DNA of 64,000 nucleotides, taken from the NCBI GenBank assembly GCA_963726745.1, contig CAVSDR010000002.1:256001-320000 (forward strand). The letters are read 5' to 3'. Below, piece by piece: positions 50,001 through 59,000 of this stretch. The DNA is from an uncultured Verrucomicrobiae bacterium. GTDB taxonomy: Bacteria; Verrucomicrobiota; Verrucomicrobiia; Chthoniobacterales; UBA10450. Position numbers: made by a program. Position 1 is the stretch's first letter. Every line of letters starts with the position of its first letter.

Positions 50001-53000
50001 CCGGCCCGGTTGGGACGTAGATTGAACAATGAAAAACTACCTCATGCCCTTGGCTCTGCTCACCCTGACCGCCATCCTGGCCGGTTGCGCCGCAGATACC
50101 ACCACGACGACGACCACGACCCGGACCGATCGCACAAAGACCTCGATGTACGCCCGCTAGGCGCCACCTCCGAGTTTTCCCCCGCAAAGCCGCGGCTGCC
50201 TACGGTCGCGGTTTTGCGGGAGCCGATCCGGCAAAGTTGGTGAGCTTGAAGGTCTGGTGCGTCAGCCGCGCCGCGTTGTCGGCGTCTTTCTCGGCAATGA
50301 CCACGGTGATTTTGATCTCAGAGGTCGAGATCAATTCAATATTCACCTTGCCCTGCCCGAGGCATTCGAAAAGCCGAGCCGCGACCCCGGAATGCGAGCG
50401 CATGCCAATGCCGACGACGCTCAGCTTGGCCATGTCGCCCTGAGAAATCAGCCGTTTCGCGCCGATTTCCCGCGCCACTGGCTCCAGGAGCGCCTCGACG
50501 CGGGCGCGATCGTCTTCGTGGACGGTGAAGGAAATATCGGTCGTGTTCCGGTCCGAGGCGCTTTGCACGATCACGTCCACGGAAATATTAGCCGACGAGA
50601 CGGCGCTGAAGATTCTCCCAGCCGCGCCCGGCGTATCCGGCACGTCGTCGAGCGTCACCTTGGCCTGCTTCCGCTCGATGCTGACGCCGCGAATGACGAC
50701 GTCCTCCATGTGCGCGGTCTCTTCCTTGGCGATCGTGCCCGGGTTGCGGTTGAAGCTCGAGCGCACCTCAAACGGGATGCCGAACTTTTTCGCAAACTCG
50801 ACCGCGCGCGATTGCATGACCTTGGAGCCCGAACCGGCCATCTCCAGAAGCTCGTCGTAGGCGATTTCGTCGAGCTTGCTCGCGTCTTGCACCACCCGCG
50901 GATCGCAGGTGAACACGCCGTCGACATCAGTGTAAATCTGGCAAGCCTCGGCGTTGAGCGCGCCTGCCAAGGCGATCGCGGTCAAGTCCGAGCCGCCGCG
51001 GCCGAGCGTAGTGGTTTCGCCCTCGATCGTCTGCCCCTGGAACCCGGCGACCACGACCACGAAGCCGTCGGAGAGCAGCTCGTGGATCGCCTTTGGGTTG
51101 ATGTTCGCGATCTTCGCCTTCGTGTGGTGGCGATCGGTCACGATCCCGGCCTGCGCGCCGGTGAGCGAGATCGCTTTCCCGCCGAGCGCATTTACCGCCA
51201 TGGCCACGAGCGCAATCGAGGCATGCTCGCCGGTGGCGAGGAGCACGTCCATCTCGCGCTCGAGCGGCTGCGCCGAGATCTGGCGCGCTAATTTCACCAG
51301 CCCATCAGTCACGCCCGCCATTGCCGAGATGACTGCGACCACGCGGTGGCCTTCGCGCTGTGTCTCCAGGAGACGCTCCGCCACTTTCCGGATGCGTTCC
51401 GGATTACCGACGGACGTGCCGCCGAATTTTTGGACGATCAAAGGCATGATGAGGCGCGCGGGATTTGGACCTTATATCGGCGCGAGTGGCAACCGTTTTT
51501 CGTGAACCAGCTAGAATCCGATCGCGCGCAGGACAGCCGCTTCCTCGGCGGCTACGGGCGGCGCCGCGGCGCAACGGATCGCCTCCGGATCCTTCAGGCC
51601 GTGCCCGGTGACCGTGCAGACGATCCGGCTCCCCTCCCCGATTTGGCCTAACGAGTAAACCGGCGCGCGCGCCGGGTCGCAGCATTTCAAGAGTCCGGCA
51701 ATCGAAGCCGCGCTCGCCGGCTCCACGAAAATTCCCTCTGCGCTTGCCAGCCAGGCCTGCGCCTCCAGAATTTCCGCGTCGCTCACGATATCGATCGCGC
51801 CCTGCGAATCCCGCAGCGCCTCCTTCGCCTGCTCCCAGCTCGCGGGATGGCCAATGCGGATCGCGGTCGCGAGCGTCTCCGGTTTGTCGATCACGCGGTC
51901 GTGAAAAATCGGCGCCGAACCGGCCGCCTGGAAACCGAGCATCACCGGCCGCCTGGTCGCGCGGCCGAGCTCAGCAAACTCGCGATAGCCCGCCCAATAC
52001 GCCGTGATGTTGCCCGCGTTGCCCACCGGCAGCAGGTGAAACTCCGGCGCGTCGCCGAGCTCTTCCACAATCTCGAAAGCCGCGCTCTTTTGCCCGGCGA
52101 TCCGGTCGGGGTTGATGGAATTGACAATCGCAAATTCCGGCCGCTTCCCGAGTTCGCGCACGATGCGCAAAGCGTCGTCAAAGTTCCCCTCGATCGCCAC
52201 CACCTTCGCGCCGTAGGCGAAGGCCTGGACCATCTTCCCGCTGGCGATTTTGCCGGCCGGCAAAATCACCGCGCAACGAATCCCCGCGCGCGCGGCATAC
52301 GCCGCCGCGGAAGCGGAAGTGTTCCCGGTCGAGGCGCAAACGACCGCCTCGGTCCCCTGCTCGACCGCTCGCGAGACGGCCACGGTCATTCCGCGATCCT
52401 TGAACGAGCACGTCGGGTTGAGCCCTTCGTATTTCACGAAGACCTCGCAGCCGCGTCCGACTTTAGCCGACAACTTGGGGCACGGGATCAACGGCGTGTC
52501 CCCTTCGCCTAACGAGACGATCGGCGTCCGCTCCGTCACTGGGAGATGCGGGCGCCAGCGCGCGATCACTCCGCGGGCGGGTTCGGGGGTCGGCTGCATG
52601 CGCGGGCATTATACAGAGAATGCCTGCGCTGCCAGTTGAGAGTTGCGCGGGCTGCGGCGAGAATCCCGCCTGCGGCCGACCACGCCCGCCTTTCATCTTA
52701 TGCCTACGCTCTCCAAGGAAGACAAACTGCGCCTCCTCACCATCCTGCTCGAAAGCCGCCACGGCGACCTGCGCGAACAAAATTTGAATCGCCAGGGCAA
52801 GGGGCATTTCCACGTTTCCGGGATGGGCCACGAAGGCCTGGCCGCGCTCGGCGTGGCCATGACCGAAGGCGATTACGTCTGTCCCTACTACCGCGATCGC
52901 GGTCTGGTCCTCGGTCGCGGAGTCGCCTCCGCGCAGCTTGCGCTCGATTATTTCGCGAAGCGCAAAGGCCAAAGCCACGGCCGCCAGATGCCGTCGCATT

Positions 53001-56000: not shown

Positions 56001-59000
56001 TTCGAGAGTCGCGCGCCGGGCACCTGCGGGAGGATGTTGTAGTGCGAGGTGTCGTTAAAGAGCGTCAGCCGCGCGCGCGACGGATCCTTGAAATCGACGA
56101 TCGTGAGCGAGGCCGGCTCGAGGTCGAGATTGTCGCGGTAACGCCGCGGATCGAAGCCCAACAAAGTGCTGACTAAAAGCCGGATGGTCGCCTTGTGCGA
56201 GACCACCGCGACCACTTCCCCCGGATGCGCACGCACGATCTCGAGCAACACCGGGAGCGCCCGGGCGGTGACCGCGAGCCCGCTTTCACCGCCGGCCGGG
56301 CGCGAAGGAAAAGGGGTCGCGCTCCCATTCCGCCGTCTCTTCCGGGAAACGTTCCTCCACCTCCTGCCGGGTGAGCTGCTCCCAGCGGCCATGAGAAATT
56401 TCTCGCAAGCCGTCGCGCAACTGCACTTCCAAACCATGCGGCTGGGCGACGATCTGCGCGGTCTCGACTGCACGACCAAGCCCCGAGGCATAGACCGCCG
56501 CGAGCCGCGTTCCCTTCAGGCGCTCCGCCAGCGCCCGCGCCTGGGTCGCGGCCGAGCTCGGCCAGCGCGACGTCGGTTGCGCCCGCGAAACGGTCCTCCG
56601 CGCTCAGCACCGTGGCGCCATGGCGGATGAGGAAGATGCGTGTAGCCGCACTCATTGCTTGGTCGTTGGCAAACTCCGCGGCGGCGCGACCGGCGCGCGT
56701 CCCCGTGGCGAAACAGCCTTGAAGAAGATAACCGCCGGTCGGCGCTTCCCAATCAATCATCTCGCCGGCTACGAAAACGCCGGGGAGTTTTGCGAGCATG
56801 AGGTTGCTGTCTAATTCCGCCCAGCGCACTCCGCCGGCGGAGGAAATCGCTTCCGCGATCGGTCGAGGTTTCGTTAGGCGAAGCGGGAAATCCTTGATCC
56901 GCGCGAGCAGTTTCTCGCGGTCGGCCAACTCGTCGGCAAAATAAGTTTCCAGCAACGCTGTCGCTGCCGGACTCATCTTCAAGGCCACCGGCCAAGGCTC
57001 CGAGCGCGTTGTCAGTCGCTCACGCAGCGCTTCCGAGGACAGTTGCGGTTTCAGGTCAAGCCGCAGCTCCGGTTGCGCCATCGCGCGCAAGATGGGCGTG
57101 AGCCGGTAGACCGCGCCGCCTTCGATCCCGTAGCGCGTGATCAGGAGCTCGCCGGAAATCGAATCGTCGCCGGCTTTCACCAGCAGATTCTTTAATGGCA
57201 TCCCTTCGGCGCGCGCCCGCAACGCTTCCGGCCAATCGATTTCCCAGCCGCAATTCGTCGGCTCAAGCGGTGCGATCTCGATGCCTAATTTCTCCAGGAG
57301 CGCGGTCCACGCGCCATCCGAACCGGTCTCCGGCCAGGAAGCGCCGCCGAGCGCCAGCACCACGGCGCGGGCCACGACTTCCGCGCCATTGGCAAAGCGC
57401 ACCCGCCATTCCTCCCCCGCCCGCTCGAGGCCTGCGAGCTGCATCCCGGTGCGAAATTCCACCCCGCGTTCACGCAACCGCTGGGTCCACGCGCGCAAGC
57501 AGGCCGGCGGCTTTCTGCCCTTCCGGAAAAACGCGTCCGCTGGTGCCGACATACGTGGCCACGCCCAGCTCTGCCGCCCAGGCGCGCAATTCATCGGGAC
57601 CAAACTCCGCGAGGAGATCGCGCCAGCGCTCGGCTTCCGCGCCGTAACGGGCGGGGAAATTCTCCACCGGCTCGCTGTGGGTCATGTTCAAACCGCCACG
57701 CCCGGCGACGAGGATCTTTTTCCCGACCGCGCTCTCCTTCTCACAAAGGATCACCGTCGCGCCGCCGGCGCCGGCCACCTCGGCCGCGCGCAAACCGGCC
57801 GGTCCGCCGCCAACGATGACCACCGGGCGGTCAGGTTCAAGCCGCCACGACCAGCAACGAGGAGCTTTTTCCCAACCGCGGATTGCCCTTCGCAGAGAAG
57901 AATATTCGCCCCCGCCGCCCGCGCCACCTCCGCCGCACGCAGCCCCGACGGGCCGCCGCCGACCACAATCAGAGAAGGACCATGCGCTGACATGGCGAGC
58001 ACTCTAAACCAAAACGCATTGACCTCGGATGGATTTTCTCTACACCGGGCGCGTCGATTGGCTGCTTCACGGGCGGCATGGGAGGCAGTTCGTCGTCTCT
58101 ATGATCGCGCCCCCTCTGCTGCATCGGCTCTCCGCAAATTTTCGCGAACTCCGAGGGCGGATTTCCGTAGAACATGGTGCAGCAGCCGCGCGCTCGCCCC
58201 ACCTGCCACCGCCCCGGACCTTTCCGATGACCAACCCCCGACTCAGACCATCCCCTCCACCATGCACCCCAAAACTTCTCCCGCGTTCGTGCTTCCGCGC
58301 ACGATGGTTGGCACGCTCGGGGGTTCCGGCACCGTGGGTGCCAGCGGGCTGTTGCTCTGGACCGGCGGCACGATGAGCGGGAGCGGAGTGACCAACGCGA
58401 ACGGCGGCATGACGATCAACAGCAGCGGAGCCAATTTGTTTCTGGACAGCCGCACGCTCAATAATGCCGCCGGGCAAACCGCCACCTGGACGGGGGACGC
58501 CAATTTCGGCGGCGACATCCGCTTTCAAAACGGCGCGACTTCAACAACAACGGCACTTTCCTGGCCCAGAGCGACCAATACCTCTACGACTTTTCGGGCA
58601 CCGGAGCGTTCAACAACGCCGGCACCTTTACCCGCAACAACAACCCGGGCACGCTCACCCTCTACAACCTCGCTTTCAACAACACCGGCACAGTGAATGT
58701 CCAGACTGGCACGCTCGCTTTGCAGGGCGGCGACGGCGGCAACACCACCGGCGCTTTCAACATCAGCTCAGGAGCTGTCCTCAACTTCGCCAGCGACTTT
58801 ACCCTCGCCGCGGCCTCCGCCGTCAGCGGCGCCGGTGGGATAAACTTTTCCAATGGCACGACCAATATTGCAGGCACCTACAACGTAACCGGCACGAGTA
58901 GCTTCTCAGGCGCGACGGTCAACTTTAACAGCGCCATCAGCAGCCTCGGGACTGGTCCGCTCAATATCAGCAGCGGAGCGGTTAACTTTAATTCCAACAA

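Follow-up and report, generated by a model that had tools for sequence, protein, structure and literature searches.

A gene of a soil Verrucomicrobium carries E1alpha, E1beta, a lipoyl domain and an E2 core of a 2-oxoacid dehydrogenase in one reading frame, at 52700–55766 on the plus strand of the window, the 64,000-nucleotide stretch of DNA analysed here (contig positions 256001–320000, with all coordinates below counted in the window). Judged from its sequence, the gene probably encodes a working, self-contained E1-E2 enzyme of about 1021 residues, which would form acyl-CoA and be re-oxidised by a shared, undocked dihydrolipoamide dehydrogenase (E3). The one-chain design is real and represents a variant of a textbook enzyme. 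No paper describing this E1-lipoyl-E2 fusion was found, and the design is apparently undescribed.

Results

Reading frame and C-terminal end of the fused gene

The open frame starts at the ATG at 52700 (alternatively at a TTG at 52643) and runs on the plus strand to 56176. Pfam analysis was run on the protein started at the ATG, from which all residues are numbered, and exactly reproduced the domain rows on which the survey's finding of one uninterrupted frame with E1alpha, E1beta, lipoyl and E2 parts was based (Table 1). However, the length of 1158 residues given there was wrong, and the suspicion voiced with it, that the C-terminal end was read-through, was borne out. One surplus base puts the sequence out of frame at about 55718; the relatives read on unbroken at this site (...FVHD-IK.EIE.F.IP...). 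Among 80 related loci, 71 could be examined for the position of the stop codon, which lay 12–28 codons past FVHD in 69 of them and after 193 codons in one, while one ran off its contig. Judged by the stops of the relatives, the protein therefore has about 1021 residues and is clear of the next gene, and the remainder of the annotated frame is read-through outside the protein.

The extra base is either an assembly indel or a genuine frameshift. If the shift were real, the gene might be a pseudogene in this genome, decaying along with the genes around it. Such decay would fit the number of frame breaks, at least four within about 2.3 kb (one at the E2 end, two in the phosphatase gene and one in a flavoprotein gene), and an ordinary third complex in this genome could render the fusion dispensable. 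We nevertheless consider decay unlikely: codons 1–1006 are intact and 71–84% identical to full-length relatives, and one of the frame shifts falls in an A/G run. In addition, the housekeeping E3 gene, located in the OGDH operon on another contig, is likewise split into three frames, which indicates indel errors in the assembly. The public sequencing runs that were found came from relatives only, with no source reads among them. The flavoprotein gene with the frame break also has a duplicated 5' segment.

Table 1. Features of the fused gene and its surroundings, in window coordinates
Feature	Position	Strand	Remarks
Aspartate kinase	50200..51447	-	NF005155 547 bits, cut-off 346
Threonine synthase (thrC), divergent neighbour	51511..52599	-	TIGR00260 320.8 bits, cut-off 167
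Divergent intergenic region shared with thrC	52600..52699	.	100 bp; one promoter-like site per strand, consensus matches only
Main reading frame, P0003	52700..55717	+	codons 1-1006 of the fused gene
E1 alpha domain, residues 23-304	52766..53611	+	Pfam E1_dh 4e-52
Alpha-beta junction, residues 305-335	53612..53704	+	31 aa; fixed length, conservation 0.51
E1 beta, residues 336-643	53705..54628	+	Transket_pyr 336-504 (6e-25), Transketolase_C 521-643 (2e-21)
Linker 1, residues 653-692	54656..54775	+	rich in Ala, Pro, Ser, Thr
Lipoyl domain, residues 693-764	54776..54991	+	Pfam Biotin_lipoyl 2e-14
Lipoyl-lysine K732 in ETDKA	54893-54895	+	invariant in 41 sequences
Linker 2, residues 766-811	54995..55132	+	occupies the position of the peripheral-subunit-binding domain of ordinary E2
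E2 acyltransferase core, residues ~812-1021	55133..55766	+	D991-H992 ... G997; Pfam 2-oxoacid_dh 824-1005, 6e-29, at 55169-55714
Extra base shifting the frame	55718 (about)	+	GAC-G-ATC
Last 15 codons and TAA stop	55719..55766	+	IKQEIEKFELPTVAA; +1 frame; TAA at 55764-55766
Read-through of the annotated 1158-aa frame	55767..56176	+	out of frame; overlaps the minus-strand phosphatase gene
Histidine-phosphatase, convergent	55979..56664	-	split over three frames; shifts near 56295-56314 and 56543-56545

Conservation of the domains and absence of the docking domain

E1_dh, Transket_pyr and Transketolase_C were present in all 41 family members scanned with Pfam. In the alignment of these 41 sequences, which share 32–85% identity, G143, D172, N173, H238, E729, K732, D991, H992 and G997 were invariant, and T730, D731 and A733 of the lipoyl DKA motif were conserved in at least 90%. 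G143-D-A ... E171-D172-N173 corresponds to the thiamine-diphosphate (ThDP) binding motif (G-D-G/A ... N) and His238 to the active-site loop His, and D991, H992 and G997 belong to the D-H-R..G active-site His motif of the E2 core. Because the catalytic and lipoyl residues are invariant at this range of identity, a natural and selectively conserved single polypeptide is supported.

The domains showed conservation of 0.60–0.73, above that of linker 1 (0.25; 14–62 aa) and linker 2 (0.32; 28–112 aa), and the alpha-beta junction was 31–40 aa long across the alignment. By these sequence measures both linkers, which are rich in Ala, Pro and Ser, are flexible. The tail past the last E2 helix is short and variable (12–28 residues after FVHD).

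The peripheral-subunit-binding domain (PSBD, PF02817) was detected in none of the 41 family members at E<=1, and it was absent from the precomputed Pfam lists of the best 120 of 4656 database matches. In this genome PF02817 matches three separate, ordinary E2 genes and not the fused protein, which agrees with the survey on both the missing E3_binding domain and the three ordinary complexes beside the fusion. It is plausible that covalent fusion takes the place of E1 docking.

Distribution of the fusion

All of the best 120 of the 4656 database matches (E<=0.001) had the same five domains and a length of 1018–1058 aa, with 78–84% identity over 100% of the main frame. A close relative was found in 119 species genomes. 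Of 401 genomes sampled from the phylum, 46 have an uninterrupted full-length copy; they belong to six families of one class: f1, 3 of 3 (including this genome); f8, 23 of 26; f9, 13 of 35; f11, 2 of 3; f13, 4 of 5; and f16, 1 of 1. The fusion is common in its bacterial class, and it is neither rare, as had been implied, nor confined to Chthoniobacterales; the earlier estimate of two in 16 relatives was far too narrow.

Ordinary complexes and E3 in the same genomes

Besides the fusion, this genome encodes three E2 cores (410, 441 and 416 aa), while in other families the fusion is accompanied by two ordinary E2 genes, not three. In families f8, f9, f11 and f13, 39 of the 42 genomes with the fusion have three E2 cores (two have four, and one has two), whereas all 27 genomes without it have two. 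This difference points to the fusion as an optional third dehydrogenase. Here, where a third ordinary complex already exists, its role may therefore be redundant or different.

No E3 gene was found in the window or in 100 related loci, consistent with the earlier remark that none adjoins the fusion. Two lipoamide dehydrogenase genes scored above the cut-off in each of five fusion genomes (three of f9 and two of f8), and also in each of five f9 genomes without the fusion; in this comparison of five genomes with five, no extra E3 co-varied with the fusion. The fusion would therefore still depend on a shared E3, and the idea of a complete machine is not supported.

We also considered whether the fusion and an ordinary complex make up a hybrid supercomplex, in which the fusion uses the E3 bound to the PSBD of that complex. 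According to the portions available of PMC8146983 and PMC10415282, Corynebacterium OdhA works with the PDH core in this manner and borrows the E2p arm. Besides this precedent, the lack of an E3-docking domain in the fusion argues for such an assembly, as does the presence of at least one ordinary E2 core in every fusion genome (at least two in all but one). However, the fusion, unlike OdhA, has its own lipoyl domain with the invariant lysine, so that no foreign arm is needed, and none of the 100 loci showed linkage to PDH or OGDH operons. We therefore regard the supercomplex as very unlikely and prefer a self-contained E1-E2 enzyme served by free E3.

Gene neighbourhood and predicted substrate

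The neighbours in this clade are thrC and the aspartate kinase gene: of the 80 related loci, 56 have a threonine synthase gene upstream and 55 have an aspartate kinase gene. In f9, a FadB-like enoyl-CoA hydratase/3-hydroxyacyl-CoA dehydrogenase gene is located directly upstream on the same strand in seven of nine loci. This link was seen in that family only, and the f8 fusions are flanked by signalling genes. Cyclopropane-fatty-acid-synthase genes lie close by in three f9 loci.

Among solved structures, the best matches of the E1 part were the two chains of the Thermus branched-chain enzyme (1um9_B, 5e-56; 1um9_A, 1e-38), and those of the E2 part were, weakly, the E2p of E. coli and Azotobacter (6e-19). 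No NCBIfam equivalog reached its cut-off, the top one being PDH E1alpha (TIGR03181, 202 vs 411 bits). Thus the HMM ranking leads to PDH-type models and the PDB ranking to the branched-chain enzyme. As the most likely substrate we propose a branched-chain or short-chain 2-oxoacid, and we suggest that the fusion feeds acyl-CoA breakdown as an optional third dehydrogenase.

Modular relatives

The fusion is one member of a modular family of the form E1alpha-beta + lipoyl + X, in which the X position is taken by an E2 core, a KAS III or a thioesterase or, inside a PKS, by an E2 core with an ACP. In 27 of the 42 long relatives scanned, a KAS III replaces the E2 core, and in one a thioesterase does so. 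P0134 (1227 aa) ends in an E2 core and an ACP, and P0231 (2895 aa) is a hybrid PKS/NRPS of the order E1-lipoyl-E2core-ACP-KS-MT-C-A. With ACP, KAS III or thioesterase following the lipoyl domain in relatives, CoA would not be the sole possible acceptor in the wider family.

The E2 core might accordingly move the acyl group of the lipoyl arm to an ACP or another acceptor and so prime fatty-acid or polyketide synthesis without CoA. The architectures just described are in line with this, as are the cyclopropane-fatty-acid-synthase genes near f9 loci. However, an ACP domain is missing from the window protein and from each of the 41 aligned sequences, no PKS/FAS genes adjoin the fusion in the 100 loci inspected, and ACP-bearing forms are few (one of 99 tree rows, plus P0231). 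Moreover, on the E1 tree the window protein belongs to a six-member clade of E2-core forms (local support 97%) that is separate from the KAS III clade. Loading of an ACP is thus quite unlikely for this protein, and transfer to CoA is the preferred reading.

Discussion

Ordinary complexes with alpha2beta2-type E1 (1um9 from Thermus, 1qs0 from Pseudomonas, 1dtw from human, and the Geobacillus PDH 1w85/3duf), which among solved structures match the fusion best in sequence, share its four catalytic and carrier domains and its conserved residues. In these complexes alpha, beta and E2 are encoded by three genes and the PSBD of E2 holds E1 and E3, whereas the fusion is one chain with no PSBD. Stand-alone fused E1alpha-beta proteins of about 640–750 aa, already annotated in public genomes, share the alpha-beta fusion but end after E1beta. 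They make up 43 of the 99 tree rows, some within the clade of the fusion; presumably they pair with a separate E2, and some may be truncated metagenome calls. The E1alpha-beta-lipoyl-KAS III fusions have the same front end but carry a FabH-like condensing enzyme in place of the E2 core. On the E1 tree they make up the sister clade. In the phylum sample they are open frames of 1100–1200 aa, which come from classes other than that of the fusion and, within its class, from one additional family.

In the glycine-cleavage system, E3 acts on the lipoyl carrier without a PSBD, as the H and L proteins exemplify. Mitochondrial OGDH recruits E3 through Kgd4/MRPS36, as stated in the available part of PMC8146983. 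Both systems show that a lipoyl domain can be re-oxidised although its carrier lacks a PSBD. No adaptor protein of the Kgd4 kind was found for the fusion, and no search aimed at one was made.

OdhA/KGD of Corynebacterium and Mycobacterium is similar in that, in passages of PMC10415282 and PMC8146983, E1 and E2 lie in one polypeptide, the PSBD is missing and a separate E3 is needed; a structure shows how both kinds of part fit into one homo-oligomer, a hexamer in which the E1 parts form three dimers and the E2 parts two trimers. OdhA has E2 before a large, homodimeric-type E1o and no lipoyl domain, whereas the fusion has the order E1alpha, E1beta, lipoyl, E2, an alpha/beta-type E1 and its own lipoyl-lysine. 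An OdhA/KGD-type fusion was ruled out by the opposite order, the alpha/beta E1 and the own lipoyl domain (NCBIfam OdhA-type model NF008907, 60.6 vs 878 bits).

For the self-contained E1-E2 enzyme we envisage the following cycle. The fused E1alpha-beta part would pair with that of a second chain, as in an alpha2beta2 E1, and decarboxylate the 2-oxoacid with thiamine diphosphate. The acyl group would pass to the lipoyl-lysine of the same chain, K732, which lies between two flexible Ala/Pro-rich linkers, and the C-terminal E2 core, expected to be a trimer, would transfer it to CoA. The covalent tether of E1 would make the PSBD dispensable, and the reduced arm would be re-oxidised by the shared E3 of the cell at no docking site. 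The analysis itself shows the domain order, the conserved catalytic residues, the missing PSBD, the flexible linkers, the phylogenetic spread and the lack of a co-varying E3, whereas CoA as the acceptor, free E3, the oligomer state and the substrate are inferred. Because one chain holds both a dimer-forming and a trimer-forming part, the assembly may, by analogy, be a hexamer as in OdhA or a closed particle of larger size.

More tentatively, the enzyme may be a closed particle (a hexamer as in OdhA or a larger cage) built from E1 dimers and E2 trimers alone, which uses its own arm, needs no non-covalent docking and meets E3 by collision, and it may also be one branch of an E1alpha-beta-lipoyl-X platform; this wider picture is possible rather than probable. 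If it is true, the front end of the platform would hand 2-oxoacid-derived acyl groups to an E2 core (CoA/ACP), a KAS III or a thioesterase, and would also serve as a loading module of PKS/NRPS. 2-oxoacids would then have a general way into the synthesis of lipids and natural products, one able to bypass CoA.

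Reading frame, domains and end of the fusion gene

On the + strand, a frame is open from 52643 (TTG) to 56176, and its first ATG is at 52700. Pfam analysis of the protein started from this ATG exactly reproduced the five domains that the survey's finding had assigned to it, and no match to the peripheral-subunit-binding domain (PSBD; E3_binding) was obtained, as had been claimed. The arrangement of the five domains in one frame is far beyond chance.

Domains of the fusion protein and genes with broken frames
Feature	Position	Strand	Remarks
E1_dh	residues 23-304 from ATG	+	Pfam, 4e-52
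Transket_pyr	residues 336-504	+	Pfam, 6e-25
Transketolase_C	residues 521-643	+	Pfam, 2e-21
Biotin_lipoyl	residues 693-764	+	Pfam, 2e-14
2-oxoacid_dh	residues 824-1005	+	Pfam, 6e-29
Histidine-phosphatase gene	55979-56664	-	split over three frames, shifts near 56295-56314 and 56543-56545
TIGR03862-family flavoprotein gene	about 56650-58000	-	main frame without N-terminus
Lipoamide dehydrogenase gene, downstream of sucB	G000:C3:406813-408203 (source genome, outside the window)	-	three frames

Past ...GAGAANFVHD, the long frame becomes low-complexity sequence, and the +1 frame at the gene end reads IKQEIEKFELPTVAA, followed by a stop at 55764-55766. Close homologues read ...FVHDIKQEIESFKIP... through this point unbroken, and therefore the window carries a single surplus base at about 55718 (GAC-G-ATC). 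The gene end could be examined in 71 of the 80 related loci, and a stop was found 12-28 codons past FVHD in 69 of them; the exceptions were one stop at 193 codons and one locus that ran off its contig end. Because the stops of the relatives cluster in this range, the fusion protein has about 1021 residues. The length of 1158 aa proposed earlier thus has to be given up as a read-through, in line with the indel already suspected at this end, and the apparent overlap with the gene on the minus strand vanishes with it. An offset of 288000 used earlier was also wrong: the window is contig C2:256001-320000, and the coordinates had been window-based from the start.

The extra base near 55718 is either an assembly error or real. 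In two public soil runs with 5-6% of the words, relatives were represented by short contigs alone, and the source strain was not covered across 55718; the runs are neutral on the frameshift. The histidine-phosphatase gene is unbroken in both related loci that carry it. In the flavoprotein gene, the FAD-binding GxGxxG start is present twice, in two other frames (at about 57811 and 57960), which indicates a frameshift and a short duplicated 5' segment. The pieces of the lipoamide dehydrogenase (E3) gene matched the model with 404.6 bits (128-461), 112.4 bits (1-82) and 31.8 bits (76-127). Since this gene is split and frames are also broken within the window, indel errors across the assembly are suggested, and the three broken genes are in favour of an error at 55718 as well.

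Conserved residues and linkers

In an alignment of 41 members with 32-85% identity to the window protein, the following residues were invariant: G143, D172 and N173, in the thiamine-diphosphate motif; H238; E729 and K732, in the ETDKA lipoylation site; and D991, H992 and G997, in the E2 active site. These motif columns are taken as evidence that the fusion would be a working enzyme. The segments flanking the lipoyl domain span 14-62 and 28-112 residues and contain much Ala, Pro, Ser and Thr; their column conservation was 0.25 and 0.32, as compared with 0.60-0.73 for the domains. By this composition and variability, they behave as flexible linkers. The length of the alpha-beta junction is fixed, at 31 residues here and 31-40 in the family. 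A cryptic PSBD within the linkers was considered and rejected. PF02817 was found in none of the 41 members, even at E<=1, and a docking domain has no room in the shortest lipoyl-to-core linker, of 28 aa.

Spread of the fusion

A search of 5.8 billion proteins, in which 8000 candidates were scored, gave 4656 matches to the window protein at E<=0.001. The best 120 of these were all 1018-1058 aa, with 78-84% identity over 100% of the query, and had the same five Pfam families, none with PF02817; their database names go no further than 'thiamine pyrophosphate-dependent enzyme' or '2-oxoisovalerate dehydrogenase E1 component'. In the GTDB species genomes, relatives were encoded at 119 stretches, and the 80 that were kept (66-85% identity) all came from Chthoniobacterales or Verrucomicrobiota MAGs. 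Of 401 genomes sampled evenly across the phylum, 46, the source genome counted, had an uninterrupted full-length fusion. By family, it was found in 3/3 genomes of its own family, f1 (source genome counted), 23/26 of f8, 13/35 of f9, 2/3 of f11, 4/5 of f13 and 1/1 of f16, in 0/7 from other families of the same order, and in no other class of the sample. One representative at 61% identity came from an Opitutaceae MAG. From the family-by-family counts, the fusion is a standard gene of several families in one class, and the rarity or restriction to one order that had been implied does not hold.

Place among the dehydrogenases of the cell

The source genome encodes four E2 cores, i.e., SucB and the PDH E2, both exceeding their NCBIfam cut-offs, a 416-aa E2 of the ordinary form with a PSBD and no assigned type, and the fusion. 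The PSBD occurs only in the three ordinary E2s, and the claim that the fusion stands beside three ordinary complexes was thus confirmed. In the families f8, f9, f11 and f13, 42 genomes carry the fusion, and three E2 cores were counted in 39 of them, four in two and two in one; each of the 27 genomes that lack the fusion has two (counts double-checked on five genomes). This makes the fusion an optional third dehydrogenase, and no ordinary complex substitutes for it in these families where it is missing.

Two lipoamide dehydrogenases per genome were above the cut-off in five fusion genomes (three of f9, two of f8), and likewise in five f9 genomes without the fusion. By this equal copy number, a dedicated E3 paralogue was rejected in the 10 genomes compared. 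A fused E3 was also rejected, as a Pyr_redox domain was found in none of 48 long relatives scanned. The reported lack of an adjoining E3 gene extended to all 100 loci inspected. From the equal copy number and the lack of an E3 gene in the vicinity, E3 must be common to several complexes.

Proposed assembly and reaction

The assembly that we infer is as follows. The E1 part would pair two-fold, like alpha2beta2 E1 enzymes, decarboxylate a 2-oxoacid and then acylate the lipoyl-lysine of its own chain. Moving on its pair of linkers, the lipoyl arm would reach the E2 core; this core is expected to be trimeric and to form acyl-CoA, and the common E3 would re-oxidise the arm undocked. The H and L proteins of glycine cleavage are one precedent for E3 action without a PSBD. 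Another is mitochondrial OGDH, for which PMC8146983 describes E3 recruitment without a PSBD, through Kgd4/MRPS36. For E1 and E2 parts in one chain forming a hexamer, the precedent is OdhA/KGD, the two-in-one 2-oxoglutarate dehydrogenase of Corynebacterium and Mycobacterium, which combines three E1 dimers with two E2 trimers according to PMC10415282.

Substrate and gene neighbourhood

The nearest solved E1 chains are those of the Thermus branched-chain enzyme (1um9_B, 5e-56; 1um9_A, 1e-38), a Pyrobaculum E1beta, the Pseudomonas and human branched-chain E1 and the Geobacillus PDH E1, and the E2 part matched E. coli and Azotobacter E2p weakly. No NCBIfam equivalog reached its cut-off for the fusion, and the top-scoring models were PDH-type. 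In 7/9 f9 loci (L086-L091, L093), a FadB-like gene of about 670 aa (enoyl-CoA hydratase and 3-hydroxyacyl-CoA dehydrogenase, ECH + 3HCDH) immediately precedes the fusion in the same orientation, and the two genes overlap in two loci. From the nearest E1s and the gene context, there is modest support for a predicted catabolic enzyme that acts on a branched or short-chain 2-oxoacid and produces acyl-CoA. The fusion may be linked to branched fatty acids; PMC5148204 contained nothing usable on fatty-acid composition for Chthoniobacter.

The neighbours in f8 are signalling genes, and no neighbour gene was conserved beside the fusion across clades. In the source clade, threonine synthase (56/80 loci) and aspartate kinase (55/80) both lie upstream and divergent. 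This synteny may be inherited, because it is restricted to close kin (66-85% identity), and as a pointer to 2-oxobutyrate it is at most a weak hint. Cyclopropane-fatty-acid-synthase and DUF2062 genes were observed near the fusion in three f9 loci.

A wider family with an exchanged last domain

When 1.84 billion representatives were searched without a filter, 1299 matches were obtained at E<=1e-30, and Pfam was run on 42 long matches and then on six more. Among the 42, E1alpha-beta-lipoyl was followed by an E2 core in 11 (one also with a C-terminal ACP), by KAS III in 27, by a thioesterase in one and by nothing in two, and one was E1alpha-beta without a lipoyl domain; a PSBD was found in none at E<=1e-4. 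The KAS III forms (P0154, P0159, P0164-P0166 and 22 others), in which a FabH-like KAS III replaces the E2 core, outnumber every other long form of the representatives, also by blastp-based classing (38/99 rows), and this order of domains suggests direct acyl transfer from the lipoyl arm to the condensing enzyme. In the 401-genome survey, matches of this type were 1100-1200 aa and mostly from other classes of the phylum. Further forms were P0134 (1227 aa), E1-lipoyl-E2core-ACP; P0192 (1091 aa), E1-lipoyl-thioesterase; P0190 (1942 aa), E1-lipoyl-KASIII-KR-ACP; and P0231 (2895 aa, N-terminally cut), a hybrid PKS/NRPS of the order E1-lipoyl-E2core-ACP-KS-MT-C-A, whose E1-lipoyl-E2 unit is an apparent loading module. 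The literature search yielded no report of a loading module of this kind.

In a midpoint-rooted FastTree phylogeny of the E1 part (99 rows, local SH-like support), the window protein groups with other E2-core forms in a clade of six (local support 97%). This clade is embedded among E1-only forms, a class possibly inflated by truncated metagenome proteins. Three other E2-core forms fall within the KAS III clade. Since well-supported branches force at least four label changes, the last domain has been exchanged repeatedly, and the front end may thus be a reusable acyl-delivery module.

Two side observations were made. In P0222 (1196 aa), E1alpha-beta with a shortened Transketolase_C is followed by a CHASE2 sensor plus an adenylate/guanylate cyclase domain; this may be an unusual fusion or an error of gene calling. 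The ESM Atlas clusters listed as nearest, at scores of 0.84-0.87 that make them leads only, include further partial fusions: one of 686 aa, mainly from Actinomycetota, joins E1beta to an E2 core, and one of 774 aa, mainly from Pseudomonadota, has a lipoyl domain between these two parts.

Meaning of the single-chain architecture

The 2-oxoacid dehydrogenase complexes are a textbook multi-enzyme machine, in which a small docking domain is the tie. The chemistry of the fusion is that of the textbook, but neither its architecture nor its lack of a docking domain is, and a full-text literature search, with most subscription journals outside its coverage, gave no description of a single-chain E1alpha-E1beta-lipoyl-E2 architecture. 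For annotation, thousands of entries under the two database names given above are E1-E2 fusions. In engineering of the acyl-CoA supply, the fusion would serve as a compact part made of a single gene. The fusion is a natural and widespread variant, in which a peptide bond would take the place of docking and the swinging arm is kept. As a minimal system of defined stoichiometry, it would address how far substrate channelling depends on a giant E2 core, how E3 reaches its substrate without a binding site, and which closed assemblies are possible from a chain with two-fold and three-fold contacts.
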